A stretch of DNA of 64,000 nucleotides from assembly GCF_028368995.1 (NCBI RefSeq), contig NZ_JAQNDL010000003.1:288001-352000 (forward strand). The letters are read 5' to 3'. This document shows, piece after piece, positions 12,134 through 61,800 of this stretch. A program made the position numbers and the translations under genes. The stretch is from Nannocystis bainbridge (lineage in GTDB: Bacteria > Myxococcota_A > Polyangia > Nannocystales > Nannocystaceae). The notes beneath the pieces were generated by a model that ran no database searches, was not told the origin of the DNA, and saw nothing but the letters and a program-made list of their open reading frames with translations. Position 1 is the stretch's first letter. The number at the start of each line of letters is the position of its first letter.

Positions 12134-12312
12134 CGAATCATCACATGTCCTGAGGGACATCTCATCCATGCCCCGCGGCCGGCTCGCTCCCGGCCGCGAG
12201 CCCTGCCAGCGCCCAGCTCGAGCTCGGCCTACCGTGATCCATCATCACATGTCCTGAGGGACATCTCATCCACGCCCCGCGCCCGCTTCGCTCCCCGCCG
12301 CGAGCCCTGCCA
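12096..12312. repeat. Imperfect tandem duplication (~105-113 bp x2) containing the 14-bp-period dyad
   Basis: gcgcccagctcgagctcggcct occurs at 12096 and 12209; atcatcacatgtcctgagggacatctcatcca occurs twice, 104 bp apart. Confidence 0.85.
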
Positions 12313-12354
12313 TCGCCCGGGTTAGCAGCCTCGCCCGGCCAGAATCGGTCACAT

Positions 12355-13074
12355 TTGCCGCGCGAGCCCGTCACCGACCGCCTCGACCGCACTCTCGGCC
12401 TGCTCGCCTCCCGGCCCTCGTGGACGGCGCGCGAGCTGGCCGACGAGCTCGGCGTCTGCGTCCGCACCGTGCGGCGCGACCTCGTCCGCCTCGCGGCCCG
12501 CGGCGTCGCCGTCGAGGCCGAGCGCGGGCGCGGCGGCGGCGTGCGGGTGCCGGCGCGCTCGGGCCTCGGCCGCGTGCAGCTCGGCGCCGAGGAGCTGCTC
12601 GACCTCTTGCTCGCGCTGGCCCTCGCCGAGCGGCTGCGCTCGCCGCTGCTGCTGACGACCCTCGGCGGGCTGCGGCAGAAGCTCGCCGCCGCCTTCCCGC
12701 CCGAGGAGCGGGCCCGGATCGCCGGCTTGCGTCGTCGGATCCTCGTCGGCCCCACCTCGGCCGCCATCACCGCCTCGTGGAAGCCGCCGCGCCCCGCGGT
12801 GCTGCGCCCGATCCACGAGGCGTTCTTCCATCAGCGCGCGCTCGAGCTGACCTACCGCGCCGGCCAGCGCTGCACCATTCGCGTCGTCGAGCCGCACTAC
12901 CTGCTGCTGAACTGGCCCGCGTGGTACCTGCTGGTCTGGGACCACCTGCGCGGCGCCGTCCGGGCCCTGCGCGTCGATCGCATCGAGGCCGCGGACCTCA
13001 CCGACGCCACCTTCCGCGTGCGCAAGGCCGAGGCGATGGTCGCCTCGCTGGGCGACATCTTCGCCCAGCTGTAG
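12355..13074 (+). CDS. HTH-WYL domain transcriptional regulator (YafY/PafB-like)
   Basis: N-terminal HTH (TARELADELGVCVRTVRRDL..G.GGG) and WYL motif (VEPHYL..WYL..RALRVDRI). Start uncertain. Confidence 0.9.
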   Translation: MPREPVTDRLDRTLGLLASRPSWTARELADELGVCVRTVRRDLVRLAARGVAVEAERGRGGGVRVPARSGLGRVQLGAEELLDLLLALALAERLRSPLLLTTLGGLRQKLAAAFPPEERARIAGLRRRILVGPTSAAITASWKPPRPAVLRPIHEAFFHQRALELTYRAGQRCTIRVVEPHYLLLNWPAWYLLVWDHLRGAVRALRVDRIEAADLTDATFRVRKAEAMVASLGDIFAQL

Positions 13075-13083
13075 CCCCGGGCG

Positions 13084-14244: not shown

Positions 14245-14296
14245 TAACATGTCCCGGAAGACATATCCTTTTGAACATGACCTCAAAGACACATCA
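14245..14296. repeat. 14-bp-period palindrome array (4 units)
   Basis: Cores at 14248, 14262, 14276 and 14290 (aacatgtccc-ggaagacatatcc-ttttgaacatgacc-tcaaagacac). Confidence 0.75.
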
Positions 14297-15091
14297 AAGC
14301 GCATCGGACCGCTCGAGCCACGCGCCCGCCGCCAGCACCAGCGCCACCGCCAGCGGCAGCGCGATCAGCAGCGACAGCGGCCCGAGCCACGCCATCGTCG
14401 CGTCGTGCCACAGCAGGTTCGGCATCACCAGGCTCAGGGCCAGCGGGTGCCTGGCGAACGCGTCGGGCCGATACAGCAGCACGGCCGTCGGCATCGAAGT
14501 CCCGAACCACGCCGCGCACGCCACCAGCAGGCCGGCGAACGGATCGCGGATCTTCACGAACACCAGCTGCAGCGCCGCCAGCAGCACCACCACCACCGCG
14601 GTGAGGAACAGCCCGCTGCCGAACGTCCCCGCCGGCGTCACGCTGCTGCCGGCCTCGCTGTCGCTCGCGATCGCCGCCGCCATCGCCGCGGAGCTGACCA
14701 CCCCGACCGCCGCCGTCCACCCCAGCACCGGCGTCGCGCGGGCCGCCACCAGCGCCGCCGCGCGCACCGGCTTGGCCAGCAGCAGCTCGAGGCGATGCTC
14801 CTCGCGCGCCAGCAGCACCACCCCGAGCGAGCCTGCCAGGCCGACGAAGAAGGTCGGGAAGTACACCGCCATCAGGTCGTTGAGCGCCAGCACCGCGGCC
14901 ATGTCCTCGAGGGCGAAGCCCGCGCGCATGAACCCGATCGCCCGCTCCGGGAGCAGCGGCAGCAATTGGTGCGTGAACACCACGCCGCCGATCCCCACCA
15001 GCATCATGATCAGCGGCCCGCGGCGCGGCGCGAACTGCCACTCGCGGCGCACGTGGCCGCAGAAATCGAGCGTCGAAGCCACCACGGTCAC
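14294..15091 (-). CDS. ABC-2 type transporter permease
   Basis: Multiple TM helices, REEHRLELLLAKPV motif, GTG start with GGAGG RBS overlapping the upstream stop. Confidence 0.8.
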   Translation of the reverse strand: MTVVASTLDFCGHVRREWQFAPRRGPLIMMLVGIGGVVFTHQLLPLLPERAIGFMRAGFALEDMAAVLALNDLMAVYFPTFFVGLAGSLGVVLLAREEHRLELLLAKPVRAAALVAARATPVLGWTAAVGVVSSAAMAAAIASDSEAGSSVTPAGTFGSGLFLTAVVVVLLAALQLVFVKIRDPFAGLLVACAAWFGTSMPTAVLLYRPDAFARHPLALSLVMPNLLWHDATMAWLGPLSLLIALPLAVALVLAAGAWLERSDAL

Positions 15092-17254: not shown

Positions 17255-17271
17255 GAAAATCATCCTGGCTT

Positions 17272-17864: not shown

Positions 17865-19012
17865 CCGCCCCCAGCCTCTACCGCCGGCCGCTGCCGCGCG
17901 AGCTCGTCGCCTTCGCCTCGCCCGCGGGCAGGGCCCTGTTCGACGCGGCGCGCGCGGCTGGCGGGCTCGAGTCGTTCTTCCCGCTCATTGAACAGTTCCA
18001 CACCCAGGCCGATCCGGCCTTCTGCGGCCTCGGCACCCTCGTCGTCGCCCTCAACGCCCTCGGCGTCGACCCGGGCCGGCTGTGGCGCGGACCATGGCGG
18101 TGGTTCAGCGAGGAATTGCTCGACTGTTGCAGCCCGCTCGAGCGCGTGCGCGCCGTCGGCATCACCCTCGACGAGTTCGCCTGCCTGGCCCGCTGCAACG
18201 GCGCCGCCGCCGAGGTCCACCGCCCTGATGCGTCCTCGCTCCTCGAATTCCGCGCCGCGATCGAGGCCGCCGCGCGCAGCGTCGTCGATCCGGCCCTCGT
18301 CGTCAGCTACGACCGCAGCGCGCTCGGCCAGACCGGCGCCGGCCACTTCTCGCCGATCGGCGGCTACGACCCCGCCAGCGATCACGCCCTCGTGCTCGAC
18401 GTGGCCCGCTTCAAGTACCCGCCGCACTGGGTCCCCGTGCCCGCCCTCTACGCGGCCACGCAGGCGCCCGACCCCGCGACCGGCCGCCCGCGCGGATGGG
18501 TCACCCTGCGCCGCAACGCCCGCCCGCCGAGCCTCCTGTTCACGGCCCGCTGCGTCGCCGGCGGCGGCTACGAGGCGTTCGCCGCGGCCCTCGCCGCCGT
18601 CACCACGGCCCTCGCCACCGCCTCCGCGCCCGACCTCGATTCCGTCTTGCGCGCGCTCGGCTCGGCCCTGCCCGGCCTGCCCCTCACCATCGAGCGGCGC
18701 CCGCTGGTCCTGTCCGAACAGACAGGTGAAGCCGAGGCCCTGCTGGCGGCCCTCCGCGGCCTGCCGCTGCACGCCCGCGTCGAAGCCCTCGGCCCGCCGT
18801 GGCCGGCCGACGCCGTCACCCTGCTGCTGCTCGCGCTGCCCGCCGAGGCCTGGTCCGGCCTGACCGCCGAGGCCCGCGCCGAGCTGCAGCCGCTGCTCGA
18901 CCTCGAGCGCCTGCCGCCGCCCGTGCGCATCGAAGCCGAGCACGTCTGCCGCCAGCTCGCCGACCTCGGCGCCCTGGCCCGCCGCCCGGCCTGCGGCGAC
19001 TGCTGCGAATGA
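17861..19012 (+). CDS. Phytochelatin synthase (glutathione gamma-glutamylcysteinyltransferase) family protein
   Basis: TQADPAFCGL (catalytic Cys), GHFSP (His) and LDVARFKYPPHW (Asp); DPGRLWRGPWRWFSEELLDCC; ATGA overlap with the SRPBCC gene. Confidence 0.92.
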   Translation: MTAPSLYRRPLPRELVAFASPAGRALFDAARAAGGLESFFPLIEQFHTQADPAFCGLGTLVVALNALGVDPGRLWRGPWRWFSEELLDCCSPLERVRAVGITLDEFACLARCNGAAAEVHRPDASSLLEFRAAIEAAARSVVDPALVVSYDRSALGQTGAGHFSPIGGYDPASDHALVLDVARFKYPPHWVPVPALYAATQAPDPATGRPRGWVTLRRNARPPSLLFTARCVAGGGYEAFAAALAAVTTALATASAPDLDSVLRALGSALPGLPLTIERRPLVLSEQTGEAEALLAALRGLPLHARVEALGPPWPADAVTLLLLALPAEAWSGLTAEARAELQPLLDLERLPPPVRIEAEHVCRQLADLGALARRPACGDCCE

Positions 19013-22205: not shown

Positions 22206-22237
22206 GGACCTGTCCCGCGGGACATCTTTTATTTTTT
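22206..22237 (+). terminator. Hairpin (the 14-bp dyad) followed by a T-tract; possible intrinsic terminator
   Basis: TGTCCCgcGGGACA followed by tcttttatttttt, between convergent genes. Confidence 0.5.
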
Positions 22238-27840: not shown

Positions 27841-28253
27841 CGTCGACTCCTCCGTTCCAACCGTCGCCAGGTCTAGCCGGTTCGCCGCCGCCGCGTCGGC
27901 CCATTCCTCGGCGCTCCATCCTTCCTCCACAATGCGCACAGCCGGCCCACGATCGCGCTCCATGCTCCCTCCACAATGCGCAATCACGGCTCCGACGCGC
28001 GGTCACGGACGCGGTGATTCCAGCGGAGCCGGGGGGAACGCCCCTGAGGCCGACCGTCACCACGCTCTCGGGACATGTTCGAATCGACATGTCCCTTGCG
28101 CCAGCCACAAACTCACCGCGACGGCCGCCCTCGGCTCGGCGAAGCTCTTCTCCCGGCCGGGTCGGCGTGTCGACCCCGCTGCCCGGACCCCGCCGCCCCG
28201 CTCCGCGATCGGCGACCGCGCGTGGTCCGCCGCGAGCTCGTGACTTCGCGCCC

Positions 28254-28881: not shown

Positions 28882-29614
28882 TCGCCTCCCCGCTGCGCTC
28901 CGCCGCCTCTACCGCGCCGGCGCGCCCGAATCACATGTCCTTAAAGACATGTCCGTTCCACCACTGTCTTTGGAACAGGACCTCATGGCCAGGTTCGCCC
29001 GCCGCGCCCCGGCGCCCGCGCGGCCCGGCCTGGCCGGGTTCGTCCGCGGCCACCGCTGGGCCCTCTCGACCGGCCTGGCTGCGATCGCGGTCGCGGCCGC
29101 CTGCCGCATGCCCTCCGACTACGACCGCGGCTTCGGCGCGACGGTCTGGTGCGAGGCCGCCGTCGCCGACGTGCACGCCGGCGATCGCCTGCGCGCCGTC
29201 GCCGACCGCCTGCAGGAGCGCGCGGGCGCCGAGCAGGTCACGGTGCGCGTCCACGCCGAGCACGACGACCTTGCGACGATCCGCATCGATCTCTGGGGCG
29301 AGGCCGCGACCGGGGTCGACGACGCCCTGCTGACCGAGCTCGCCGACGTGCCCGAGCTGCGGCTCGATGGCTGCCGCGTCGAGCCCCTGGTCGAGACGGT
29401 CCACGGCACCCTCGGCGGCCGCCTCGGCCTCGAATGGTTCGACCTCGAGCTGCTCGACCGGGACGACGCCGAGGCCGCGCGCGCCGAGATCCTGGAGCGC
29501 CTCGAGGCCCGCGGCCTCCGCGGCGACGCCCAGGTCGAGATCTTCGACGACGGCGCCGGCCGCCGCGAGGTCACGATCCGCATCGAGGCCGAGGGCGAAC
29601 TCACCGAGCCCTGA
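28868..29614 (+). CDS. Putative anti-sigma factor (single TM, extracytoplasmic domain)
   Basis: GTG with AAGGAG RBS overlapping the ECF 3' end; short N-terminus, TM helix (WALSTGLAAIAVAAAC), then a soluble domain. Confidence 0.65.
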   Translation: MPWLDRLPAALRRLYRAGAPESHVLKDMSVPPLSLEQDLMARFARRAPAPARPGLAGFVRGHRWALSTGLAAIAVAAACRMPSDYDRGFGATVWCEAAVADVHAGDRLRAVADRLQERAGAEQVTVRVHAEHDDLATIRIDLWGEAATGVDDALLTELADVPELRLDGCRVEPLVETVHGTLGGRLGLEWFDLELLDRDDAEAARAEILERLEARGLRGDAQVEIFDDGAGRREVTIRIEAEGELTEP

Positions 29615-29787
29615 TTCTTTTAGAGGGGACATGTCCGAAAGGACATGGCGGCAAGGCCGCTGCGGGGCTCTGCCCGCGAGGCCCGGGCCACGGTCACACG
29701 CCAGCCCGCGCCGGCCCGCAGCGGCGCGCCGATCGGCATGTGCTAAGGTCGCGCGCGCCCGGGTCTTCCCCCGTTGCCGCGCCGTCC

Positions 29788-34692
<4,905 letters not shown>

Positions 34693-40115: not shown

Positions 40116-40484
40116 GGGAACTCCCGCCGCCCCGCCGCCCGCGATCGCGGCCCGGCCCTCGCCCCGGCCGCGGCGCCCTGGCCTGGACCCCTGGCGCAGC
40201 AGACGCTCGAATCTGCCGCTTTGGGCCGCTCCCGGGGCTTCCTGGGGCTCCCGGCGGCCTCGCCGCCCGTGCGCTAGCGCTCGCGCCACTGGCGCCTTGC
40301 TGCCGCTGGCCGCCGCCGAAACGAATGGCCCTGATTTAACGCCGACCGGCAGGCGGGCAGATCTTGCTGGATCGCGGCCGGCCGAACGGCCCTGCGCCGG
40401 GCGGACGCCTACAGCGCACGCGAGGCGCCGCGATCTCCCGCGAGCGCCGGCGTCGAGATCTGCGCGCGGACCGCCTGCACCGGT

Positions 40485-40564
40485 GGACATGTCCCACGGG
40501 ACATGTCTGAAAAACCACGTACGAAAGGGCACGTCCCGCAGGACATGCCCTTTCGTTCATGCGT
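40485..40564. repeat. 14-bp-period palindrome array (6 units)
   Basis: CATG/CACG cores at 40488, 40502, 40516, 40530, 40544 and 40558. Confidence 0.85.
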
Positions 40565-42145: not shown

Positions 42146-43099
42146 GTGAGCCTCCTGCGCGCATTGCCGGCGATCGGGCTCGCGCTCGCGCTCACGGGCT
42201 GCGGGGCGCCGCTCGCATACTCGCGCTTCGTCGCCGAGACGCCGTACAGCACGGCGCCGCTGCCCGCACGCGCCCACGTGTTCCTGATCGCGGGCGGCTC
42301 CGACGTCGCCAACTTCGCTGCCGAGGTCGCTGCACAGCGCGAGCTGCTGCGCACCCGCGGCGTGCAGGCCGACGAGATCGCGTGCTACTGGGCCCAGCCG
42401 ACGCGGGAGGCGTTCCGCCGCGACCGTGCGCAGTACCGTCGCCTCGCGGCCGCGCTCGTCGACTGTTACCCGGCCGCCACGGCGATCGTGCGCGAGCACC
42501 TGGCCCGCGCGGCCGCGAGCGAGCCGCCGTTCCTCTACGTCTACGTCAGCACCCACGGGCTGAGCTCGCTGCTGCCCCCGGATGTCCCGAAGGACCTGCT
42601 CGAAGCGCCAGATGCGGCGATGCTCGACCAGTACGCGCTGCAGCTGGCGGCCGGGCCGGGCCGCGGGTTCCACCCGGCGTTCCTGATGGCGGCCCGCCGC
42701 GCCGGCGCGCCGACCGACGACCTGGTGTTCTCGCCGGGCATGCTGGCCCGCGCGCTGCAGGCGTTGCCCGCTGCGACGCCGAAGGTGGTGGTGCTGCAGG
42801 CCTGCCACGCCGGCGGCTTCGCCCCCGCGCTCGCGCAGGTGCCGGGCCTGGTCGGCCTGGCCGCGGCCCGCCACGACCGCACCAGCTTCGGCTGCGACCC
42901 CGGCCCCGACATGACGATCTTCGGCGCGATCTACATCCGCCTGCTGGAGCGCCGCCTCGGCGAGCCCGCAGCCCTGCCCTCGCTCGACTGGCACGCGCTC
43001 TACAAGCAATTGCAGGCCGAGGTCACCCGCGCCGAGGCCGCCCAGGGCGCGACGCCGTCGCTGCCGGTGCTGCTCGAGAGCGCGGCGCCGGAGCCGTAG
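42146..43099 (+). CDS. Clan CD cysteine peptidase lipoprotein (C13/legumain-like)
   Basis: Lipobox LTGC; His-Gly (YVSTHG) and Cys (VVLQACHAGGF); AAARHDRTSFGC. Start uncertain. Confidence 0.75.
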   Translation: MSLLRALPAIGLALALTGCGAPLAYSRFVAETPYSTAPLPARAHVFLIAGGSDVANFAAEVAAQRELLRTRGVQADEIACYWAQPTREAFRRDRAQYRRLAAALVDCYPAATAIVREHLARAAASEPPFLYVYVSTHGLSSLLPPDVPKDLLEAPDAAMLDQYALQLAAGPGRGFHPAFLMAARRAGAPTDDLVFSPGMLARALQALPAATPKVVVLQACHAGGFAPALAQVPGLVGLAAARHDRTSFGCDPGPDMTIFGAIYIRLLERRLGEPAALPSLDWHALYKQLQAEVTRAEAAQGATPSLPVLLESAAPEP

Positions 43100-43108: not shown

Positions 43109-43457
43109 GGACAGGTCCTCGAGGACATGTCCTTCGGGACATCTTCCTTAAAAAAACGGCGCTCGTCATGACAATGCCCGAAGGACATGTGCTTTCGGCC
43201 AGCCATGCGATCCGCCCGCGCGGCCCGCGGTCGCAGCATGGCCCGGAGGACATGCCCGATCGGTCAGCCTCGCGTGCCCCCGACGCTCGCCGCGCTCACG
43301 ACCCCAGCCGATGCGCCGCGAGCCGGCTGGGCGCCCGCGAATCGAGCGCCGCCGCGCGAGCCGGACGGACCTGTCCCGAAGGACATCCTCGCTCGCGCCG
43401 GTCAGCCACGCCGCTGCTATCGGACTGACCTGTCCCGAAGGACACCCTCGCTCGCGG
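43109..43457. repeat. Cluster of 14-bp-period dyads between convergent genes, including a ~35-bp direct repeat
   Basis: Cores at 43112/43126/43140, 43186/43200, 43237/43251/43265, 43370/43384 and 43429/43443; gacctgtcccgaaggaca-cctcgctcgcg occurs twice. Confidence 0.85.
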
Positions 43458-43458
43458 C

Positions 43459-46200
43459 TCAGCCCTGGCCGGCGATCCACGCCGAGATCGCGGCGGCGAG
43501 GGCCGTCTCGCCGCCCGCGGACGCCTCGCCGAGGGCCTGGCGGGCCAGCGCCACCGTCTGCGCCCGGCTCTCCGGGCCGGTCTCGCCGGCGGCGGCGTCG
43601 GCGGCTGCGCGCGCCTTGGCGAGGGCGAAGCGGGCCAGCGCGACCTGGGCCGGCGCGCCGGCGCGGGTCGCCAGGCCGAGCGCGCGGGTGCACGCGCCCT
43701 GGGCCGCGGCGTGCTCGCCGAGGGCCGAGTCGACGGCGCACAGCCACGTCAGCGGCTCGACCAGGCGCGGATGGTCGGGGCCGAGGCTGTACTCCCAGGC
43801 CGCCAGCGCGCGCCGCAGATCGCCGGCCGCGTCGGCCCACCGCTGCTGGGCGGCCGCCGCCAGCCCGCGGCCGACCAGCGCCGGCGCCATGTCCGGGTGG
43901 TCCTGGCCGTAGATCTTGGCGTAGATGGCGAGCGCGTCGTCGTAGCGCTCGCGGGCCGCCGCCGCGTCGCTGCGGGCGCGCGCGAGGTCGCCGGCGACCA
44001 CGTGGACGCGGGCCCGGCCCGGGTGCTCCGGCGGCAGGCGGGCCGTCGCCAGCTCGTGGGCGCGGGCGACGTGGCTGGCGGCCTCGCGGTCGCGACCGCC
44101 GCGCTGACAGGCCGCCCCCAGGTCGAGCAAGATCGGCAGCAGCCGCGGATGATCGACGCCGAGCAGCTCCTCGCCGCGGCGCAGCGCCGCCGCCAGCTCG
44201 ACCCGCGCCGCCTCGGCGTCGCCCTCCTGCAGCAGCGCCCGGCCGTAGCGACCGCGCGCGCTGGCCTCGCGGCGGCCGTCGTCGCCGAGCCGCTGCAGCG
44301 CGGCCGACAGGCGCGGCCACAGGCGACGCGCCTCGCCGCGGCGGCCGAGGTCCTCGCACTCGACGCCGAGCTGCAGGGTCAGGGCGTCGGCCGCGACCTC
44401 GTCGTGGCGGCTCGCCTCCGCCGCCCACAGCGCGTCGGCCAGCCCGCGCGACGCCGCCTCGGCCCGCCCCAGCGCCCGCTCGATCGCCGCCCGCCCGTAC
44501 AGCGCCTCCGCCCGGGCCGGCAGCCACGTCTCCTCGTCGGCCGCCAGCGCGCGCGCGATGTCCCACGCCCGCGGCGCGTCGCCCAGCGCCAGCACCGCCC
44601 CCGCGTGGTCGAGCTCCGCCCGCAGCCGCTCGACCAGCGCGCGCGGCCCGTCCTCCTCCGGCTCCGGCACCGCCGCCGCCAGCCGCCGCGGATCGTCGCA
44701 GTCGCGCGGGGCCGGCAGGCCGTCGAGCGCCGTGCCGGCCCGATCGAGCGCCGGGCCCGAGGCCTCGGACAGCGCCCGCGCCAGCCCGGCGAAGGCGCTG
44801 CGCCGGCGCTCGAGGCAGGCCCGTCGCCGCGGCCCCGCCGCGTCCGCGGCCGCCGGATCTGCCTGCGCGTTGCGACATGTCTCCTGGTACATGTCCCGAA
44901 GTTCTTGCGCGTGGCGATCGATGGCCGCCAGGATCGGACCGGCGAACACCGCCCCGCCGGGTCGCTCGGCCAGGGCGCGGCCGAGCCCGGCCCTGCGCGC
45001 GTCGTCCCAGCCGAGGTCGGGCGCCTCGCACATGCCCGCCGGGACAGGTGACTCCGGGCGGGCCGCGACCACCTCGTGCACGGCGAACGCGGCCCCGGCG
45101 AACGCGACCGCCAGGCCGGCGCCGAGCCAGATCCGGCGGCTCAGCCGGTGCCCCCGCGGCCGCTCGCCGAGGTAGTCGAGCAGCTCGTCCATGCCCTTGA
45201 AGCGGTCGGCGGGGCGGACGCTGAGCCCGCGCAGGACGATGCGGTGCAGCCACGCCGGCACGTCCGTGTCCTTCGGCACCTCTTGCACGCGGCCGGCCAG
45301 CACCGCCTCGCGGACCACCGGCACGCGGTCGCCGACGAACGGGCGCTGGCCGTAGAGGCCCTCGTACAGCGCGACGCAGAAGCTGAACTGATCGGTGCGC
45401 GCGTCGGTGGCCTGGCCCTGATACTGCTCGGGGGCCATGTACGCCGGCGTGCCCGTCATGCCGCCCGTGCGGGTGATCCGCATGTCGAGCAGGCTCTTCT
45501 CGGCCATGCCCTTGATCGCCTCGGTATAGGTGTCGGGGCGGGCCAGCGGGCCGATGCCGCGGCCGGCGCGGGCGAGCCCGAAGTCGCCGACGCGCACGCG
45601 ACCCTCGGCGTCGATCATCACGTTGTCGGGCTTGAAGTCGCGGTGGATGACGCCGGCCTTGTGCGCCGCCGCCAGCCCGCGGCCGGCCTCCATGAACACC
45701 AGCAGCACTTCCTTCCACCCGCGTCGCCGCGGCCCGTGCGGGCCCTCGGCCGAGCGCAACCACTTCGTCAGCGTCACGCCCTTGACGAACTCCATGGCGA
45801 GGAAGATCTGGTCCTCGACCGAGCCGACGTCGAAGATCGCGATCACGTTCGGGTGCGACAGCTGGGCCATCGCCTGCGCCTCGCGCAGCAGCCGGTGGCG
45901 CGCCTTGTCGCGCTTGGTGCGGCTGATCGCGGCGGTCCGCAGCACCTTGAGCGCGACCTTGCGATCGAGGTCGCGGTCATAGGCGACATAGACGACGCCC
46001 ATGCCGCCGGAGCCGAGCCGCTTCAGCACGTTGAAGCGGCCGATCTGGCTCGGCACCGGCTCGAGCTCGGCCGCGCAGTCGTTGGCCGGCTCGCCGTCGA
46101 CCGGCGGCGTCAGCGGCGTGCCCATCTCGGGCGACGGGCTCACGTGCGACAGCACCGGCGTCAGCGGTGTGTCCAGTGTCCGATCGGCGGGAGAAGACAC
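43459..46200 (-). CDS. Membrane Ser/Thr protein kinase with TPR repeats
   Basis: GSGGMG, HRDFKPDN, DFG and GTPAYMAPE motifs, TM helix, LG.DHP TPR repeats. Start uncertain. Confidence 0.92.
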   Translation of the reverse strand: MSSPADRTLDTPLTPVLSHVSPSPEMGTPLTPPVDGEPANDCAAELEPVPSQIGRFNVLKRLGSGGMGVVYVAYDRDLDRKVALKVLRTAAISRTKRDKARHRLLREAQAMAQLSHPNVIAIFDVGSVEDQIFLAMEFVKGVTLTKWLRSAEGPHGPRRRGWKEVLLVFMEAGRGLAAAHKAGVIHRDFKPDNVMIDAEGRVRVGDFGLARAGRGIGPLARPDTYTEAIKGMAEKSLLDMRITRTGGMTGTPAYMAPEQYQGQATDARTDQFSFCVALYEGLYGQRPFVGDRVPVVREAVLAGRVQEVPKDTDVPAWLHRIVLRGLSVRPADRFKGMDELLDYLGERPRGHRLSRRIWLGAGLAVAFAGAAFAVHEVVAARPESPVPAGMCEAPDLGWDDARRAGLGRALAERPGGAVFAGPILAAIDRHAQELRDMYQETCRNAQADPAAADAAGPRRRACLERRRSAFAGLARALSEASGPALDRAGTALDGLPAPRDCDDPRRLAAAVPEPEEDGPRALVERLRAELDHAGAVLALGDAPRAWDIARALAADEETWLPARAEALYGRAAIERALGRAEAASRGLADALWAAEASRHDEVAADALTLQLGVECEDLGRRGEARRLWPRLSAALQRLGDDGRREASARGRYGRALLQEGDAEAARVELAAALRRGEELLGVDHPRLLPILLDLGAACQRGGRDREAASHVARAHELATARLPPEHPGRARVHVVAGDLARARSDAAAARERYDDALAIYAKIYGQDHPDMAPALVGRGLAAAAQQRWADAAGDLRRALAAWEYSLGPDHPRLVEPLTWLCAVDSALGEHAAAQGACTRALGLATRAGAPAQVALARFALAKARAAADAAAGETGPESRAQTVALARQALGEASAGGETALAAAISAWIAGQG

Positions 46201-46951: not shown

Positions 46952-48277
46952 ATGAGCAATACCTTGATCAGAATTGCGGGGGCGCTCGCGCTGACCGCCG
47001 CGTGCGGCCCCAAGAGCGGCAACGAGAGCGACAGCACCAGCGAGACCGGCGGCGAGTCGATCACCGAGAGCACCACCGGAAGCGGGACCGCCGACCCGCC
47101 GGAGTCGACCGGCACGCCCGAGCCCACCACCGGCGAGCCCACCACCGGCGAACCGGCCGAATGTCCCGAAGGACAGGATCCCCTCGCGCCGCTGTGGAGC
47201 GCCGAGTTCGCGCCCGAGCCGTCGTCGTTCGGGTTCTACAGCGGCATGGTGCCGATGGGGCGCATGGCGGACGGGCGGATCGTCGTGGCCATGAACTTTC
47301 AGCCGTCCCAGGACCAGAGCGGACTGGCGCTGCTGGTGACCGCGCCGGACGGCGCGCTGCTCGGCCCGCAGACGGCCGCGCTGGGCACCTCGGCGGTCGA
47401 AGTCCACGCCCTGCACGTCGACGCGGACGATCAGCCGCTGGTGCTCGCCGAGCACTTCGACGGGGACGGTTCGGTCCACATGTTGACGCGCTTCGACACC
47501 GACATGGCGCCGCTGTCGCAGGCCCTGCTGCCCTTCCCGTCGCCGCACCCGCTGTTCCGGCCGGTGATGGGCGTGGGCGGCGACGTGCTGGCGATCGCGG
47601 GCCTCGACGAACAGCAGGGCACGCAGCAGATCACCAGGCTCGCGCCCGACACCGGGGCGCCGCTGTGGAAGCACGAGCTCGCCGGGCCCGCCGACCTGTT
47701 CCCGCGCCAGATCGCCGTCGGCCCGCAGGGCGACGTCGCGGTCGCGGCCCACGCCGACTTCAACGCCGACGAGGAGGACACGCTGCGGCTGTGGCGCTTC
47801 GACGCCGACGGCACGCTGCTGTGGGACCGCGTGCTCACCGTCCCGGTCTACGAGGACATCACCGCCCTGCACTTCGCCCCGGACGACCAGCTCGTCGTGC
47901 TGCGCGGCACCGTCGAGTTCTCGACGCGCGTCGAGCTGCTGTCCGTCGAAGTCGCCACCGGCGAGACCCGCTGGGAGCTGACCGTCGCCGAGCCCGAGGG
48001 CGACATGACGGCGTGGGCGCAGGACATGTTGGTCGACAGCGACCGCTTCACGATCCCCGTGTCGCGCAGCAAGTCGCATCACGACATCGCCACCAGCACG
48101 CACTCGCTCGAGCTGCGGACCGTGTCGCTCGCCGGCGAACTGCTGGAAGTCACCCCGCTGCCCGGGGTGCTGATGCCGGATGCGACCTCGTGGGTGCGCA
48201 GCCTCCGGGGCCGCTGCGGCGAGCTGATCGTGCTCGAGAGCTCCTCGAACCTGCGGCTGTTCGCGTTCGCGCCGTGA
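46952..48277 (+). CDS. Lipoprotein with beta-propeller-like domain
   Basis: Lipobox TAAC, Thr/Glu-rich linker, repeated DTGAPLW / DGTLLW / TGETRW motifs. Confidence 0.72.
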   Translation: MSNTLIRIAGALALTAACGPKSGNESDSTSETGGESITESTTGSGTADPPESTGTPEPTTGEPTTGEPAECPEGQDPLAPLWSAEFAPEPSSFGFYSGMVPMGRMADGRIVVAMNFQPSQDQSGLALLVTAPDGALLGPQTAALGTSAVEVHALHVDADDQPLVLAEHFDGDGSVHMLTRFDTDMAPLSQALLPFPSPHPLFRPVMGVGGDVLAIAGLDEQQGTQQITRLAPDTGAPLWKHELAGPADLFPRQIAVGPQGDVAVAAHADFNADEEDTLRLWRFDADGTLLWDRVLTVPVYEDITALHFAPDDQLVVLRGTVEFSTRVELLSVEVATGETRWELTVAEPEGDMTAWAQDMLVDSDRFTIPVSRSKSHHDIATSTHSLELRTVSLAGELLEVTPLPGVLMPDATSWVRSLRGRCGELIVLESSSNLRLFAFAP

Positions 48278-51037: not shown

Positions 51038-51616
51038 CACCGATCCCCCCACCGCAGACGCTACGGGCCGGGCGCACGCCGCGTCAACGCTCAATCATAA
51101 GACCATGGGAAATTCCATGCATCGGTCGATGCAATGACGTGTAGGCGCCGCCGTCACGTCGCCGCATCAGCACGAGGATGACGCGGCCCGCCGGCGACAC
51201 CGGCGAGCGGCCCATGGTGCCGCGCCGCCCCAACCCGCGGACGGTGACTGCAATCGGCCTTGCACGGCCGCGCTCCCTCTACACAATGCACATTCGGCGA
51301 ATCACGCGTCGTGCTTCGCCCGCGCGCGCACCTCTTTCGCCGACACGAAATCGCGGCGAGCCTCGCGGCGAAGCGCCGCCCTCGCGGCGCGCCGCTCGTC
51401 GCGGCCGCGCACCGGTTCCCGGCGCCGAATCAAGATGTCTCTTCGGACATGTCCCTTCGTCACCCACGGCTCGCCGCCCGGCCGCTCGCGCGGCTGCCCG
51501 AAGGGCCGAGCTCGGTGCCGGCCCGAGCCGCGGGCGCGCGGCCTGGCGGGCTCTCGGCGGCGAGCGGCTGCAGGGTCGTGGACGCGGGCGGCGGCGCGCT
51601 CTAGACTGCCGCGGCT

Positions 51617-52452: not shown

Positions 52453-52518
52453 GAACATGTCTTGAAGGACCGAAACTTTCGGACATTTCCATATAGACAT
52501 GCCCTTTGGGACATATGC
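52453..52518. repeat. 14-bp-period palindrome array (5 units)
   Basis: Cores at 52456, 52470, 52484, 52498 and 52512. Confidence 0.8.
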
Positions 52519-53523: not shown

Positions 53524-53919
53524 ATGGGACCCCAGGTGACCCGGAGCGAGACCGAGGGGATCTGCGTCGAGGTGAAGACGCGCTACGTCGGCGGGCGTGC
53601 CTTGCCCGAGGGCGCACGCTTCGTCTTCGCTTACACAATCCGGATCTCCAACACCGGCGATGCGCCCGCCCAGCTGTGCCGCCGTCACTGGTTCATCACC
53701 GACGCGCACGGCGACGTGCGCGAGGTCGAGGGCGAGGGCGTGGTCGGCTCGCAGCCGCTGCTGCACCCCGGCGAGTCGTTCGAGTACACCAGCGGCTGCG
53801 TGCTCGAGACGCCCCACGGCGCCATGCACGGCAGCTACACCATGTTCCGCCCCAGCGGCGCCTGCTTCGAGGCGCTGGTCGACGCGTTCGTCCTGGCCGA
53901 CCCGCAGGCCATTGTCTGA
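53524..53919 (+). CDS. apaG: ApaG (DUF525) protein
   Basis: FVFAYTIRISN..QLCRRHWFITD..EVEGEGVVGSQP..FEYTSG..GAMHGSY. Confidence 0.95.
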   Translation: MGPQVTRSETEGICVEVKTRYVGGRALPEGARFVFAYTIRISNTGDAPAQLCRRHWFITDAHGDVREVEGEGVVGSQPLLHPGESFEYTSGCVLETPHGAMHGSYTMFRPSGACFEALVDAFVLADPQAIV

Positions 53920-53956
53920 AGGGACATGTCCTCGGGGCCATGGCCCGAGAGACAGC
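53910..53956. repeat. 14-bp-period palindrome array (4 units) overlapping the apaG stop
   Basis: Cores at 53911, 53925, 53939 and 53953. Confidence 0.75.
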
Positions 53957-54030: not shown

Positions 54031-54825
54031 GTGCGCCTCCATGCCCTCGCCGTCGCCGCGTTGCGGGGCCACGTCGAGCGGTTCCTCCGCGCCCACGGCG
54101 TCGACCCCGGGCAGCCGCGCGAGGACGCCGAGCTCGACACCTTCACCCTCGTGAGCATGCTGCTGGCCGCGCTGGGCCACGTCCGCGCCGCCTACCCGTG
54201 GCCCGCAGGCGCGCCCGGGCCCGACCCGCCGGGCCTCCTGCCGGCCGTCGCCGCCGCCCTGCCCGCCTACCACGCGCCGCTCACCGCCGACGCCTGCGTC
54301 GAGGCCCTGCGGCGGGTCCTCGGCTTCGCCGTCGACGCCGGCCCGTGCCAGCGACGCGCCGCCCCGCCGGCCGTCTATCCCTACATGTCCTTCGAGACAG
54401 ATGACTCCCTGCGCGCCGCCGACCTCGCCGACCGCGTGCTCGGCGTCGTCACCGACGACGGCTGGCTCGCCGAGCCCGCGCGCCGTGACATCGTCCTCGC
54501 CGCCGCCCTGCCCGCCAACGCCGAGCCGACCCGCTTCGAAGCGCTGGACCGCGAGCGCGCCAGCGCCCTGGCCGCCCACCTCCTCCCGGGGACCGACCGC
54601 CACGCCGCCGCCGCCGCGTTCGTCCGGCTGTTCGGCGACGCCACCCTCTGCTTCGGCCTGCACGACCAGGGCAGCGAACGACCCGACCCCTTCGCCCACG
54701 GCCACGCGTGGAGCCGCTACGACGCCCACGGCTACGGCAGCTGGGGCCGCACCCTCGTGCTCGCCGTCACCGACGGCCTCCGCGTCGCCTACCTCGACGC
54801 CCTGTGGGACGTCACCAGCGAGTGA
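54031..54825 (+). CDS. Hypothetical protein
   Basis: GC3-rich coding frame with protein-like composition; no family recognised. Confidence 0.6.
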   Translation: MRLHALAVAALRGHVERFLRAHGVDPGQPREDAELDTFTLVSMLLAALGHVRAAYPWPAGAPGPDPPGLLPAVAAALPAYHAPLTADACVEALRRVLGFAVDAGPCQRRAAPPAVYPYMSFETDDSLRAADLADRVLGVVTDDGWLAEPARRDIVLAAALPANAEPTRFEALDRERASALAAHLLPGTDRHAAAAAFVRLFGDATLCFGLHDQGSERPDPFAHGHAWSRYDAHGYGSWGRTLVLAVTDGLRVAYLDALWDVTSE

Positions 54826-54876: not shown

Positions 54877-54953
54877 GGGCATGTCTCTGAGAACATGCCC
54901 CGGAGCACATGCCCGAAAGGACATGTCCTCGAGAGCATGCCCGCGGGGACAGC
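54877..54953. repeat. 14-bp-period palindrome array (6 units) between convergent genes
   Basis: CATG at 54880, 54894, 54908, 54922 and 54936, plus GACAG at 54950. Confidence 0.88.
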
Positions 54954-54954: not shown

Positions 54955-55731
54955 TCAGCCGAGCCCGGCCAGGAACGCCGACACCACCGCCGCCGTCTCG
55001 TCGGGCCGCTCGACCTGCACGTAGTGCCCCGCCCCGCGGAGCACGGCCAGGCGCGCGCCTGCGATCCGGTCGACGATCGTCTGGCGCAGGAACGGCGGTG
55101 GCATGAACGGATCGTCGGTCGCCACCACCAGCGTGCGGGCCGTGATCGCCCCCAGGCGATCGGCGAAGCTCAGCCCCGACCACGACTCGAAGCCCTCGGC
55201 GATGCACTTCGAAGGGATCGTCTCTCCGGCCGCCAGCAGCCGCTCGCGCGCGCTGTCCGACAGGTTCGTGCACGCCATCCCGAGGATCGTCGCCTTCGCC
55301 TCGCGGTTGTCGGCCCCGCGGAACAGCCCCGCCGCGTCGGGCGGGAACGGGATGCCCGACGCCGGCACCGGGCACAGCAGCACCTGCCCTTGCACCCGCT
55401 TCGGCTCCGCCGCCGCGATCCACTGCGCGATCGCCCCGCCCATGCTGTGGCCGATCAGCACGAATGACCTGTCCCCGAGGACATCCATCAGCTCGGTGAT
55501 GTCGGCCGCGTAGCGCTCGACCGTGTAGCCCGCCTCGGGCCGGCCGGACTCGCCGGCGCCGCGCAGGTCGGGGATCACGAGCCGGAAGCCCGCCAGGTCG
55601 AGCCGCTCGGCCAGCTCGTCGTAGACCGCGCTGGAGACCATCCAGCCGTGGATCGCCAGGACCGTCCGCGGGCCCTCGCCGAGCACGCGGTAGGCGATCT
55701 GGACCTTGTCGCTCGTCGTCATCGTCGGCAT
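54955..55731 (-). CDS. Alpha/beta hydrolase
   Basis: IHGW, DLRGAGES, GHSMGG, DD.F and GAGHY..E.P motifs. Confidence 0.93.
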   Translation of the reverse strand: MPTMTTSDKVQIAYRVLGEGPRTVLAIHGWMVSSAVYDELAERLDLAGFRLVIPDLRGAGESGRPEAGYTVERYAADITELMDVLGDRSFVLIGHSMGGAIAQWIAAAEPKRVQGQVLLCPVPASGIPFPPDAAGLFRGADNREAKATILGMACTNLSDSARERLLAAGETIPSKCIAEGFESWSGLSFADRLGAITARTLVVATDDPFMPPPFLRQTIVDRIAGARLAVLRGAGHYVQVERPDETAAVVSAFLAGLG

Positions 55732-58800: not shown

Positions 58801-61800
58801 CAGCAGCAGGTCGGCCTGCAGCTTCGCGTCTTGCTTGCGGCGCGCGCGGTCGACCAGCCCGATCACCGCTTCGACGTAGCTCGCGCCGTGACCGAGGCGC
58901 GTCGCCAGCTCGGCCGCAGCCTGCTGCAGCGTCGCCGAAGCGGGGTCCTGCTGCAGCGCCTCGAACCGCAGGCCCAGCGCCTCCTCGGCCTGGCCGGTGG
59001 CCTCGAGCGCGTCGGCCAGGTCGCCGAGCACGCTGCCGCGGGCCGCCGGGTCCTGGGCCGCGGCCAGGCGCGAGCGCAGCACCCGGACCAGCAGCGATTG
59101 GTCGCCGCGGCTGCGCAGCGCGCGTTGCAGCTTGCGGGCCTCGCGGTCGTCCTGCAGCGCCGCCTCGATCGCCGAGCCGAGCAGCTCCTGCGCCAGGTCG
59201 GCCTGCCCGCGGCCCTCGGCCAGGCGGCTCAGCTCGTACTGCGCTTCAGCGATGCCGATCAGGCCCTCGTCGCCGTCGACCCCGCGGCGGCGCGCGGCCA
59301 GCAGCAGCGCGCGGTAGCTGCGTTCGGCGCGCGCGAGGTCACCTGTATCTCGGGACAGCTCGGCCAGCAGCTGCAGGCTCGCCACGTCGCCGACGTCGAT
59401 CGCCGTCGCCAGCTCGAGCTGGGCCACCGCCGCCTTGGTGTCGCCCAGCGCGCGCGCGACCTGGGCCAGCTTGTAGTGCACGCGCGCCCGCTCCGGCGGC
59501 CGGCGGCGCCCGAAGTCGGCCAGCAGCCGCTCCAGCACCCCCTGCGCGTCAGCCCAGCGCTCGCCCGAGACCAGCGCGTCGGCCAGGTAGGCCAGCACGC
59601 CGCGGTCGTCGGGCACGAGCGCGTGCAGGCGCTCGAGCACCGGGATCGCGCGATCGAGCTCGCCGAGGCGGTCGCGCACGATCGCCGCCGCCTCGTAGAG
59701 GAACGCCAGCACCTGCTCGCGATCCTCGGTGTGCTCGGCCGCGACTTGCAGCAGCGACGCCAGCGGCTCCCAGTCGCCCGCCTCGCGCTCGAGCTGGATC
59801 AGCAGGTCGCGCGTGCGCGCCTCGGCCGGGTGGTCGGCGACCGCCCGCGTCAGCACCTCGATCGCCTTGACGTTGCGCCCGGCCCCGAGCAGCGCGCTCG
59901 CCAGCCCGAGCACGATGTCGGTCCGCTCCGATCCTTCGGGCGTGCGGACCAGCCGCTCCGTCAGCCACGGCACCGCCTCGGCCGGCTCGCCGCGCGCCAC
60001 GTACAGCCGCGCCAGCGCGTCGAGGTTGTGGAAGTTCGGCGTCAGCGAAGCGGCGCGCCGGTGGCTCGACAGCGCCACCGCGACGTCGCCGATCCTGCGC
60101 TCGGCCAGCTCGGCCAGCTGCGTCCACAGCCGGACCGCGCGCGGCTTGTCGTCGACCTGCTCGAGCCGGGCCGCGTGCTCGCCGAGGAAGCTCGCCAGCT
60201 CGTCGGGGCTGGCCTTGTCGGCCAGGATCTCCGTCAACGCCGCCAGCGACGGGTCGTGGCTCGGATCGTCCTGCAGGTTCGACCGCAGCGCCTCGACTCG
60301 CCCGCCGCGCTGCTCGATCACCCCGACCAGCCGCGCGATCTCCAGCCGCAGCTCGAGCCGGCGCGCCGCGTCTGGCTCCTTGGCCAGCTCGTGCTTGCGC
60401 AGCGTCAGCAGCTCGGGGAACCGCTCCTCCGCCTGCAGCAGCGGCCCGAGCAGGCGCAGCACCTCGAGGTCGTCCGGGGCCGAGGCCAGCGCTGTCTCGT
60501 ACAGCCCGATCGCCCGCTGGCGATCGCCGAGCTCGGTGAAGATCGCGGCTGACCTCACGCGCATGTCCTGAGCGACAGGTTGCGCGAAGGGCAAGGTCGA
60601 GACCTTGGCCAGCAGCTCGGCCGCGGCCTTGCGGTCGCCGTCCTGCTCGGACAGCTGCGCCAGCTTCTGCGCCGCCCAGCCGACGCTGGCCTCGTTGCTG
60701 CGCTTGCCGGTGGCCGCCACCCCGCGGCTCCACAGCGCGGTCGCGCGGGCCAGAAGGCGCCGGAGGATGTCGCGGGTGATGTCGGTGCCGCCGAGCAGCC
60801 CGAGCGCCAGCTCCGACGCCTCGTACAGCGGATCGAAGTCCGTCTCGCTCAGCCCGTCGAGCGCCAGCAGCGTGTCGATCAGCGCCGGCTCGGGCGCCGC
60901 GCGCTGCAACTCGGCCAGCGTCTGCAGCCGCTCGCGGTGGCCCGGCTGGGCCGCCACCGAGCGCAGCAACGCCTCGCGCGCCGCGGCCTCGTCGCCGCGC
61001 TGCTCGCGGTGCCACTGGGCCACGCGGGCGGCCACGAACGCGTAGAGCTCCGGCGTCAGCGAGCTGCTGGCCGCGTTGGCGGCGGCCTCGAGCGCCAGCG
61101 TCAGCCGCTCCCAGCCGGCGTGCTCGGCCGCGAGGCCCTCGACCAGCGCGAACGTGGCGTCGTCGATCTTCTGGTCGCCGACGATCTGCCCGAGCAGCGC
61201 GTGCGCGGCGGCCGAGAAGTCGTCCACCGCCGCCGCGCTGCGGATCGCCCCGCGGACCGCCTCGGCGTCGCTGCGGGTCGCCGACAGCACCGCCTGGTAG
61301 GCCGCCAGCGCCCGCGCGGCGTCGTTCAGCTTGTGCTCCGCCAGCCGCGCCTCCGCCAGCCGCAGCTCGGTCGCGCGGTGCGGCTCGCCGGCGATCGTCA
61401 CCCCGGCCGCCTTGTGCAGCGCCTCGGCCGCGGGCCCGAAATCACCTGTCTCTTCGGACAGACGCAGAAGATCGCGCTCGATCGAGCGGTCGGCCGGCGC
61501 CAGCGGGAACGCCCGGGCCAGCGCCGCCACGGCGGCCGCTTTGTCGCCGGTGTGCGCCTCGTGCAGGCGGGCCGTCTCGCGCAGGATGTCGACCTGCTTG
61601 ATCGGATCGCCTTCGGCCCCCGCCAGGCGGGCGTCGACGATCGCCGCCAGCTCGCTCCACTCGCCGCGGCCGCGGTACAGCTTGCCGAGCACCTCGACCG
61701 CGCTGCTGCGCGCCTCGGTCTCGAGCGTCGCCAGCAGGCCCTCGCGCGCGCCCGCGTGGGCCGGGTCGGCCGTCAGCGCGGTGTCGTAGCAGGCCACCGC

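Follow-up and report, generated by a model that had tools for sequence, protein, structure and literature searches.

A selected DNA palindrome tiled every 14 bp at gene ends in Nannocystis, probably a docking site for an abundant dimeric protein

A phased palindrome in the Nannocystis genome

A 14-bp palindrome, TGTCY-N4-RGACA, recurs through the Nannocystis genome as single units and as arrays in exact 14-bp phase, with about 9,000 units in excess. It is a sequence-specific, non-mobile DNA element with the geometry of a dimer site, and it is under selection, which partly bears out the proposal of an initial annotation of the window (the whole 64,000-nucleotide stretch analysed). Judging from sequence comparison, the motif is probably a double-stranded DNA docking site for an abundant dimeric protein, whose arrays would mark where transcription units end or insulate these ends. 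Two thirds of the convergent junctions carry such a sharply defined, selected and phased array, and there are named candidate readers. If true, this would be a new way of marking gene ends.

In the window, TGTC-N6-GACA occurs 18 times and every other spacer from 0 to 20 occurs 0-3 times each; 100 dinucleotide shuffles give 0.51 copies on average and never more than 2. The whole genome has 3,663 copies vs 29-175 for each of the spacers 0-5 and 7-19, so that the spacer of six, which the initial annotation had proposed to count against a shuffled background, is enriched at both scales. The 14-bp phase claimed there also holds across the genome, where GACA-N0/14/28/42-TGTC is found 2237/1305/645/574 times. 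The motif is thus real, and what changes is its basic unit. It is TGTCY-N4-RGACA that is obligatory, not the GGACATGTCC box: of the 1,593 intergenic GACATGTC, only 74 have neither of the far TG/CA ends. The earlier unit counts refer to 10-bp junction boxes; counted as 14-bp units, the arrays at 14250, 40476, 52458, 53913 and 54882 come to 3, 6, 4, 3 and 5. The wider footprint spans about 20 bp (RCM-core-KGY), the middle positions are AT-rich (59%), and forms with a one-sided mismatch, such as TGGC...GACA, are frequent (759 vs 55 in the control).

A position-weight scan of the window returns 28 loci, close to the roughly 25 counted before. Of these, 27 lie within 12146-61460 and one is a weak in-gene copy at 3010; the reported absence of copies from the first 12 kb therefore holds for strict copies. 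Each of the 12 first-core positions listed earlier (12144-54880, with 43112 for the 43112-43443 group) does begin a motif core. Six of the 18 strict copies fall within predicted genes, a point that had not been stressed; gene positions come from an in-house hexamer gene caller (8,301 genes, 83% coding). An Rfam covariance-model scan of the window gives 0 matches at the gathering score. We found no description of the motif in Nannocystis in the main texts of freely available papers. Among the matches listed, the spaced forms of the motif return no paper, and those for GGACATGTCC are p53 sites or primers by title.

Arrays lie behind stop codons and between convergent genes

Arrays have sharp edges, and their lengths show a second peak at 5-6 units. 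Coverage by arrays is highest (0.15) 15-45 bp after stop codons and is about 0.01 over the 45 bp immediately upstream of start codons. The location at gene 3' ends and between convergent genes, described before for the window, is enriched genome-wide: among convergent gaps of 60-400 bp, 691 of 1,026 hold arrays. Array presence does not increase with an expression proxy (0.32-0.42), and an array is found at only 6 of 102 tRNA ends; both results count against end-marking. The rRNA operons and the tRNA array have no site of at least 12 bits, which we leave out as evidence because ribosomal-protein genes are a motif desert as well.

The window illustrates this placement. A single unit, TGTCC-TGAG-GGACA, lies at 12146..12159, 12 bp past the stop of gene 10646-12133(+), and an identical unit at 12250..12263 arose when about 104 bp at the end of the upstream gene were duplicated locally, so these two copies are not independent. 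The 3-unit array at 14250..14291 ends 2 bp short of the stop of gene 14294-15085(-), and a single unit at 22211..22224 occupies the convergent gap between 20980-22194(+) and 22251-22667(-). Two 2-unit arrays follow genes, one at 28936..28963 behind the ECF sigma gene 28291-28881(+) and one at 29618..29645, 3 bp past the stop of gene 28985-29614(+), and a 6-unit array at 40476..40559 follows the stop of gene 40586-41233(-) at a distance of 26 bp. The convergent gap 43099(+)/43459(-) holds the group at 43114..43444, with 3 units at 43114-43155, 2 units at 43239-43266 and singles at 43372 and 43431. Four in-phase units, two of them above the scan threshold, lie at 52458..52513. A 3-unit array at 53913..53954 overlaps the stop codon of the apaG-like gene 53536-53919(+), and the 5-unit array at 54882..54951 lies in a convergent gap and comes within 3 bp of the stop of the hydrolase gene 54955-55731(-). 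Divergent gaps are the minority class, as for the 2-unit array at 28076..28103; the single unit followed by a half unit at 51436..51449 is in a divergent gap too.

Inside genes, strict sites number 1,260 vs 85-96 after synonymous shuffling (14-fold), in all three frames; they are spread evenly along genes, and in-gene arrays reach 8 units. In the window we find single in-gene units at 18711..18724 (gene 17861-19012(+)), 47162..47175 (read as C-P-E-G-Q and present also in two relatives), 54386..54399 (gene 54031-54825(+)), 55470..55483 (identical in five relatives) and 61447..61460 (gene 55849-63621(-)), and 2-unit in-gene arrays at 42583..42610 (gene 42146-43099(+)), 44864..44891 (kinase-TPR gene 43459-46155(-)) and 60550..60577 (again in 55849-63621(-)).

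The distribution also speaks to an architectural reading, in which a nucleoid protein coats the sites for compaction or topology and they lie behind stops merely because this is the least harmful place. We regard this as unlikely. The motif is spread evenly across contigs, with no clear ori/ter gradient, as well as across genes; it is depleted before starts, and it is sparse in atypical, probably recent DNA as judged by gene nativeness (29% vs 73% of convergent gaps). A myxobacterial precedent exists in CdbA of Myxococcus xanthus, for which the available text of the report describes more than 500 sites (569 peaks) with little effect on transcription, modelled as an 18-bp direct repeat with repeats 4 bp apart (PMC7156744). 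Least expected from coating are sites that hug the stop codon, with coverage of 0.15 reduced to 0.05 within 150 bp and a U-shaped profile across 242 long convergent gaps, and a 5-6-unit class concentrated in convergent gaps (321 of 499 intergenic arrays of that length). Were the arrays architectural only, they would still be among the densest sequence-specific nucleoid codes described, able to rewrite protein linkers.

The letters are conserved, not the pairing

In orthologous intergenic arrays, the two terminal positions have identities of 0.91 and 0.97 and the central ones 0.55 and 0.40, vs 0.82 at four-fold sites. Across species the terminal TG/CA are kept and the centre drifts, and genic arrays hold TG/CA constant while the amino acids change; in sequence comparison, the TG...CA ends are the part of the motif on which purifying selection acts. 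Arrays also keep their places: at 46 testable places we find 28 arrays and 4 single units in orthologous position. In five related species, the position orthologous to the array at 40476..40559 carries same-register arrays whose centres differ. In the gap 43099(+)/43459(-), the relatives' arrays adjoin the same stops and differ in length. Units at the stop of 53536-53919(+) and arrays beside the stop of 54955-55731(-) recur at the same stops in five relatives. Two genic arrays in genome G000 are 42 bp longer than in five relatives. The motif is passed on in situ and expands through local duplications, which in genes add 42 bp at a time and keep the frame.

This record bears on a selfish REP- or MITE-like repeat spread by a transposase or recombinase. 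The TG...CA ends recall transposon termini, the extragenic 3' location is that of REP/BIME, in-frame genic arrays recall insertion elements, and array edges are sharp. However, 814 arrays of at least 4 units contain no copy families: all 13 perfect matches stem from duplicates at contig ends, a further 4 reach 36/40, and the others match unit-shuffled controls. Y1_Tnp/RAYT (PF01797) is found in 0/5 genomes (control 6/14), the arrays stay at orthologous places across species, and among the genes flanked by most units, inspected by sequence, there is no mobile-element gene. The selfish reading is thus largely refuted already and very improbable, and the initial annotation was right to set aside a MITE or a CRISPR.

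An RNA-level element, in which arrays, once transcribed, form hairpins and so terminate mRNAs or protect their 3' ends in a cell without Rho, we consider rather improbable. It would suit the position directly after stops, the fold of 5-6-unit arrays (about -35 kcal/mol vs -20 for base shuffles) and a few sites in the sister genus g4 that resemble a hairpin with a T-tract. In E. coli, hairpins position convergent termination, according to the available text of PMC13082048. On the sense strand behind the stops of tandem genes, G-U exceeds A-C (1131 vs 980, p=0.001), a small excess that hints at some RNA-level selection. Against hairpins, compensatory changes are absent within units, where observed/expected Watson-Crick pairing is 0.441/0.436, 0.629/0.621 and 0.576/0.580 at positions 3-5, and the flanks show neither stem extension nor compensatory pairing. 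One-sided mismatches are abundant, UUCG and CGAA loops have no strand bias (108 vs 96), and convergent gaps without arrays fold equally strongly (-32). What is conserved is the identity of the letters rather than their pairing, in genes too. Intrinsic terminators differ likewise, in that the arrays have no T-tract in the oriented 3' flank and their pairing is not maintained by compensation.

Since copy families, RAYT and compensatory pairing are all missing, the motif looks like a selected protein site on double-stranded DNA and not like a REP, MITE or hairpin; the REP-like alternative of the initial annotation is given up on the same three grounds. REP/BIME of enterobacteria and pseudomonads, which are associated with RAYT, are short palindromes clustered in hundreds to thousands behind stops and between convergent genes. 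The motif resembles them in being high-copy, extragenic and placed at 3' ends and convergent junctions. It differs in having no conserved full-length copy and no GTAG/CGTC foot, and in its individually unique units, strict head-to-tail 14-bp tiling and strong selection within genes.

One clade of a family without detected rho

The motif is limited to one clade of three genera (SH-aLRT 98). Since the motif-rich genera form one clade, every correlation with gene content is a single event; 400 other Myxococcota have 0-14 sites and thus provide no independent contrast. In the sister genera the units are mostly single, and in g4 the single sites show the same bias (14 in 8.4 kb of convergent vs 2 in 18.0 kb of divergent gaps). 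Candidate carriers outside Nannocystis were discarded, as the five genomes with array-like matches hold only 6-32 sites; the 17 loci chosen as lying outside Nannocystis (L020 and others) have no gene in common among the matches listed. Viral occurrence of the two-unit pattern was likewise set aside, with 32 scattered stretches whose GC is mostly unlike this host. Among the sequencing runs listed, apart from six rows of small share, no RNA run carries the motif.

Clade restriction, thousands of copies, enrichment in coding sequence and scarcity in atypical DNA would also fit a biased process, either DNA-uptake drive or methylation-linked repair, with no role at gene ends. HIP1 of cyanobacteria and the uptake words DUS/USS are clade-restricted, hyper-abundant short words enriched even in coding sequence, and the motif is like them in these respects. 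It is unlike them in being a spaced dyad with a free centre and no fixed word, 64% intergenic and arranged in phased arrays; nor does its box stand alone, as that of HIP1 does. A biased process would leave unexplained the exact 14-bp tiling, the 5-6-unit class and the association with stop codons, and CATG as such exceeds Markov expectation only 1.24-fold; we consider an origin of this kind highly unlikely. We found no methylome for Nannocystis in the literature.

The gene rho is found in 0/51 genomes of the family (control 8/14), and the Rho RNA-binding domain in 0/17 family genomes vs 61/104 other genomes of the class. U-tract terminators occur in 74 of the 1,026 convergent gaps of 60-400 bp, and in 57 of the 691 that hold arrays. 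Rho loss is family-wide and predates the motif. In the motif-poor genera, U-tract terminators are likewise few and the samples that were read contain no arrays of this kind, so a cell without Rho can live without the motif. The available text of a survey describes Rho-less species as having, typically, small genomes of low GC content with many intrinsic terminators, and counts one myxobacterium among them (PMC11347177). A large, GC-rich family without detected rho and with few U-tract terminators poses the question of how its members end transcription. The motif is also relevant to the expression of Nannocystis biosynthetic clusters in other hosts.

Candidate readers

The leading candidate reader, put forward tentatively from gene content and predicted fold, is a family of stand-alone mini-Fis proteins. 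They have 3-14 copies in 19/19 motif-rich genomes vs 0-3 in the 48 motif-poor genomes, of which 44 have a single copy, and among the 19 motif-rich genomes their copy number follows motif density (Spearman 0.68). G000 has 11 mini-Fis matches (HTH_8; for example G000:C2:2991539-2991757); further paralogues lie at C1:1320087 and C5:53556. Their modelled structure is a three-helix fold of Fis/NtrC type, natural tandem-fused doubles exist, and by codon bias, a weak measure of abundance, 6 of 9 scored copies are in the top 5%, with a seventh just outside. The recognition helix GITRHALKRR is identical in motif-poor genomes. A dimer prediction scores 0.30, which speaks neither for nor against dimerisation, and the gene tree does not resolve the branching. 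As to autoregulation, the 450 bp upstream of the ancestral single-copy gene hold no conserved motif copy. HU/IHF, searched as a control, tracks the clade too (4-5 copies in 11/13 genomes vs 2-3 in 38), so the mini-Fis copy profile is not specific. A clade-specific HU/IHF paralogue (G000:C5:217084-217377) is itself a second, doubtful candidate.

Other proteins were rejected. LexA was tried because the LexA box of Verrucomicrobia is TGTTC-N4-GAACA; one LexA is over the cut-off, and the 330 bp before lexA are without the motif. A box upstream of lexA resembles the Myxococcus LexA box. For a ParB/Noc paralogue there is one ParB match only in the genome, and a winged-helix nucleoid-like family has 0-9 matches in motif-rich and motif-poor family genomes alike, with no tracking. 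As a marker of Rho loss elsewhere, mini-Fis was dropped as well: strong matches are confined to this family, and other families give weak C-terminal HTH matches in long proteins.

Possible action of the arrays and comparison with known systems

If the motif is a docking site that marks transcription-unit ends, it may have started out, in the ancestor of the three genera, as a lone site read by a global regulator or a nucleoid protein. The Nannocystis dimers would later have come to bind next to one another at 14-bp intervals, with three of them on four helical turns, in blocks of 1-3 or 5-6 units. Such blocks could mark or insulate the ends by slowing RNA polymerase once translation has ceased behind it, or by absorbing strain between converging polymerases. 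It is possible, though improbable, that mini-Fis-type dimer blocks replace Rho and U-tract terminators as a DNA-encoded protein roadblock. RNA polymerase would then be stopped when no ribosome pushes, and Mfd (mfd is found in 5/5 genomes) would clear the stalled polymerase; translated polymerase would pass in-gene blocks, and antisense and converging transcription would be blocked both ways. A strict roadblock must tolerate all the in-gene sites and the 8-unit in-gene arrays. Termination by protein roadblock has precedents in Mfd-dependent roadblocks in bacteria and in MTERF/TTF-I in eukaryotes, with which the motif would share a DNA-bound protein, here predicted, at the end of a transcription unit. 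To our knowledge, the bacterial cases are single regulatory sites and not a genome-wide end-marking system, whereas the motif is genome-wide and its end-marking predicted. Translating ribosomes are stated to promote roadblock bypass in the available text of PMC13082048.

Like the sites of Fis and CdbA, the units are moderately degenerate, number in the hundreds to thousands in and between genes, and would be read by a small abundant protein. The E. coli Fis site is a 15-bp G-N13-C; here too the centre is AT-rich, and the candidate reader has a predicted Fis/NtrC-type fold. The motif differs from both in its excess of units and in being far sharper, tied to stop codons and tiled in phase, and the single dyads of the sister genera speak against a direct-repeat unit as in CdbA, where the reader is an RHH tetramer. 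With parS/ParB, NBS/Noc, ram/RacA (site frame TGNC-N6-GNCA), matS and SBS it shares the format of a 14-16-bp palindrome, which in those systems has dimeric helix-turn-helix readers. Those sites number in the tens in ori or ter regions, and the motif in the thousands, evenly spread. The landmark analogy drawn in the initial annotation (parS, matS, Noc, SlmA) is not supported, given the lack of a clear density gradient and a canonical parS at C1:4343336-4345334, which exists with the one ParB apart from the motif.

Abundance and anatomy of the motif

The window holds 18 strict copies of TGTC-N6-GACA and 0-3 copies for each other spacer from 0 to 20, and 100 dinucleotide-shuffled versions of it give a mean of 0.51 strict copies (maximum 2). 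A weight-matrix scan finds 28 loci, 27 of them from position 12146 onward, which bears out the dyad that the initial annotation had placed at about 25 loci. In the whole Nannocystis bainbridge genome (11.05 Mb in five contigs, 71-72% GC), of which the window is C2:288001-352000, spacer 6 stands out likewise: it has 3,663 strict copies, where each of spacers 0-5 and 7-19 has 29-175. The proposed 14-bp phase also holds: intergenic CATG pairs number 3213, 1830, 1200 and 646 at lags 14, 28, 42 and 56, whereas the off-phase lags listed give 38-151, and the motif spacing has harmonics at multiples of 14. A search pattern of two motif boxes matches at least 87 records, 46 of which a close flank places on this genome. 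The motif is real, and apparently undescribed in print: literature searches found no published description, and the main-text passages of PMC5217627, PMC8565304 and PMC13613805 name neither the motif nor the genus.

The unit reads TG(T/C/g)CY-N4-RG(A/G/c)CA; its centre is AT-rich and its flanks are RCM and KGY. Of the two earlier descriptions, the dyad stands as the obligatory unit and the GGACATGTCC box does not. A 10-bit threshold yields 11,859 units, compared with 1,499-3,151 in shifted-spacing controls. Of the 8,034 runs that these units form, 5,131 are single units (many of them background) and 1,483 are doubles; runs of three units number 606, runs of four 205, runs of five 346 and runs of six 199, and another 64 are longer. 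Array edges are sharp, and terminal units score on par with inner ones. With a period of 14 bp, or 4/3 of a helical turn, four turns would accommodate three dimers.

Taxonomic range

Among 67 genomes of the family Nannocystaceae, MTGTCY-N4-RGACAK occurs 103-2,824 times in 19, belonging to the motif-rich genera g1, g2 and g4, and 0-12 times in the other 48; the 400 other Myxococcota searched have 0-14 copies each. The three genera form one clade (SH-aLRT 98 in an RpoB tree of 30 genomes). In 40 regions of g2 and g4, 20 of them picked for containing sites, the sites are mostly single, their lean to stop codons and convergent gaps is clear in g4 and weaker in g2, and we found no stem extension around them. 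Separately, in an Anaerolineae genome (G061; loci L038, L061 and L064), one fixed, longer palindrome with the same two-box core recurs about eight times; with 26 sites, this genome is not otherwise enriched in the motif.

Position relative to genes

Using a purpose-built hexamer gene caller (8,301 genes, 83% coding), we assign 2,360 strict copies to intergenic sequence, 1,260 to genes and 43 to borders. At least one strict copy is present in 569 of 1,375 convergent, 766 of 3,850 tandem and 172 of 1,536 divergent gaps. For convergent gaps of 60-400 bp, the weight matrix finds an array or a strong single unit in 691/1,026, and a hairpin with U-tract occurs in 74/1,026. Arrays of at least 4 units start mostly at -3 to +15 relative to the stop codon. 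Array coverage is highest 15-45 bp past stops (0.15) and is about 0.01 just ahead of starts; it is U-shaped over 242 long convergent gaps, the middles of which may hold uncalled genes. Array presence climbs from 29% to 73% with the nativeness of the flanking genes, did not rise with an expression proxy, and is slightly commoner after lagging-strand genes (431/1,521 against 308/1,390). Motif density has no clear ori/ter gradient along the genome. Motif deserts often have lower GC and atypical codons, and the ribosomal-protein cluster is also a desert. Arrays accompany 6 of 102 tRNA ends; the genome has a 23-gene tRNA array (C2:2556665-2559233) and another tRNA cluster in which tRNA-Leu is frequent (C2:2356727-2357509).

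Selection and inheritance

Strict copies within genes are 14-fold over three synonymous shuffles (85-96) and occupy all frames. Drive by DNA uptake or methylation, another way for a short motif to accumulate, we consider very improbable, and a selfish repeat scarcely less so. Among the 814 arrays of at least 4 units, copy families are absent apart from 13 contig-end duplicates and four arrays at 36/40, and the only identical long arrays are due to near-identical inverted duplications at contig ends (C1:4515659-4536530, C2:3021502-3033751, C2:1-3617 and C5:710378-717528), which are probably assembly fold-backs. Comparison with related genomes, which the initial annotation had proposed, finds arrays flanking the same stops in five related species, with different centres. 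Identity at intergenic unit positions 1-7 is 0.91, 0.97, 0.76, 0.84, 0.83, 0.55 and 0.40, against 0.82 at four-fold sites (ungapped columns of 80-99%-identity alignments, 167-175 per class, so that divergent gaps are under-sampled). Of 20 genic arrays examined, 13 could be matched to an orthologous segment of one or more relatives; the peptide of genic arrays varies freely while TG/CA is kept, and two arrays are exactly 42 bp longer here than in five relatives. The DNA motif thereby shapes protein sequence: arrays translated in frame at C3:1012000-1018700, C3:1247970 and C2:2459317 show up in membrane proteins and enzymes as recurrent 'HV...DMS' peptide inserts.

The dyad could instead act in RNA, as a hairpin, and behind tandem genes G-U does slightly exceed A-C (1131 against 980). 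Within genes there is no such excess (1025 against 1039), Watson-Crick pairing within units is at its expected frequency, and neither pairing conservation nor a strand bias of the loops was found. Pairing is not the conserved property of the units, and we regard the hairpin as unlikely. What these comparisons establish is a selected, inherited DNA-level dyad, tiled at 14 bp close to stop codons, in a family without detected Rho.

The termination setting

The rho gene (TIGR00767) was found in 0/51 family genomes, with 8/14 control genomes positive, and the Rho RNA-binding domain in 0/17 family genomes against 61/104 others of the class; mfd is present in 5/5 genomes. Across the class, the domain was not found in 60/121 genomes, spanning whole or near-whole families (present in 0/17 of family f1, 0/6 of f19, 1/6 of f7, 3/16 of f10 and 5/14 of f15). 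Passages of PMC11347177, which covers 2,730 species, describe Rho as missing mainly from small low-GC genomes with many intrinsic terminators and name one myxobacterium without it, Haliangium ochraceum; beyond that single species, Rho loss is a repeated event in large GC-rich myxobacteria. The motif-poor genera likewise have few U-tract terminators, and arrays in 1 of 162 gaps (400 kb, with poor gene calls in G025). Rho loss therefore predates the motif and can occur without it.

Our favoured reading, held with only slight preference over its negation, is that a putative dimeric protein occupies the dyad, that in Nannocystis the dimers would bind cooperatively as blocks, and that the bound blocks may mark where transcription units end, or insulate those ends. 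A purely architectural role is a distinctly less probable reading. Equally doubtful is the boldest version of end-marking, in which an array acts as a roadblock to untranslated polymerase but lets translated polymerase through. Passages of PMC13082048 report that ribosomes promote roadblock bypass, and that head-on collisions end convergent transcription in E. coli; single sites less than 30 bp from a stop would, however, be met with the ribosome still close behind.

In its way of working, the motif is most similar to sequence-specific nucleoid-protein codes such as those of Fis and of CdbA (PMC7156744). REP/BIME elements share the genomic position of the motif, yet it lacks what defines a REP, and it likewise falls outside intrinsic terminators, parS, LexA boxes and HIP1; the REP-like option and the parS and HIP1 analogies first suggested are thus set aside. 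The motif offers a testable route toward something categorically new.

Candidate readers

A codon-bias shortlist surfaced the mini-Fis proteins, in which a Fis-type HTH stands alone in 66-82 aa; the genome has 11 matches. All 19 motif-rich genomes have 3-14 copies (five or more in 18), against 0-3 in 48 motif-poor genomes (exactly one in 44), and copy number follows motif density (Spearman 0.68 over the 19, which are mutually kin). Strong matches are confined to this family, and in four database proteins two such units are fused in tandem. The modelled structure (three helices, pLDDT 78) resembles Fis and sigma-54 activator DNA-binding domains, its best folds falling short of E 0.001. Copy number of a control family of winged-helix nucleoid-like proteins did not track the motif. 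Mini-Fis is thus a candidate reader, with counter-evidence: motif-poor genomes have an identical recognition helix, the two groups differ most clearly at residue 2 (Arg or Gln), and no motif was found in the ancestral promoter. In the 20 loci listed, the single copy of the motif-poor genera is syntenic with C2:2991539.

A second candidate is an extra HU/IHF paralogue (C5:217084-217377), matched in 13/19 motif-rich and 0/48 motif-poor genomes (E 1e-17); HU/IHF copies number 4-5 in 11/13 motif-rich genomes against 2-3 in 38 others. That HU/IHF tracks the motif too warns against reading specificity into a profile drawn from one clade. We excluded LexA, ParB/Noc and RAYT.

A mini-Fis with 76-79% identity to that at C5:53556 is encoded on three viral contigs (L309:3001-3180; L310 and L311:3001-3165; two of the three are near-identical), with weak motif units nearby; in L309 the gene adjoins recT. 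A basic, highly codon-biased protein family (L112-L114, at C2:1707006, C3:1107326 and C2:2529716) joins a small N-terminal domain to a winged-helix-like C-terminus through a linker rich in lysine and alanine, with no Pfam family over cut-off. Present in 33/36 family genomes and 0/24 outside, it looks like an undescribed nucleoid protein.

Other features of the window

The motif-free first 12 kb includes three ADYC-domain genes, a Ser/Thr kinase and an FHA-sigma54 activator (4377-10547). At 12100-12320, a gene end is tandemly duplicated (about 104 bp) upstream of an HTH-WYL gene (12355-13074). At 29788-34692 (+), with a 2-unit array ahead, lies a gene for a 1,634-aa protein in which a type IA topoisomerase is fused to a RecQ-type helicase, with Toprim, Topoisom_bac, DEAD, Helicase_C and RecQ_Zn_bind domains.
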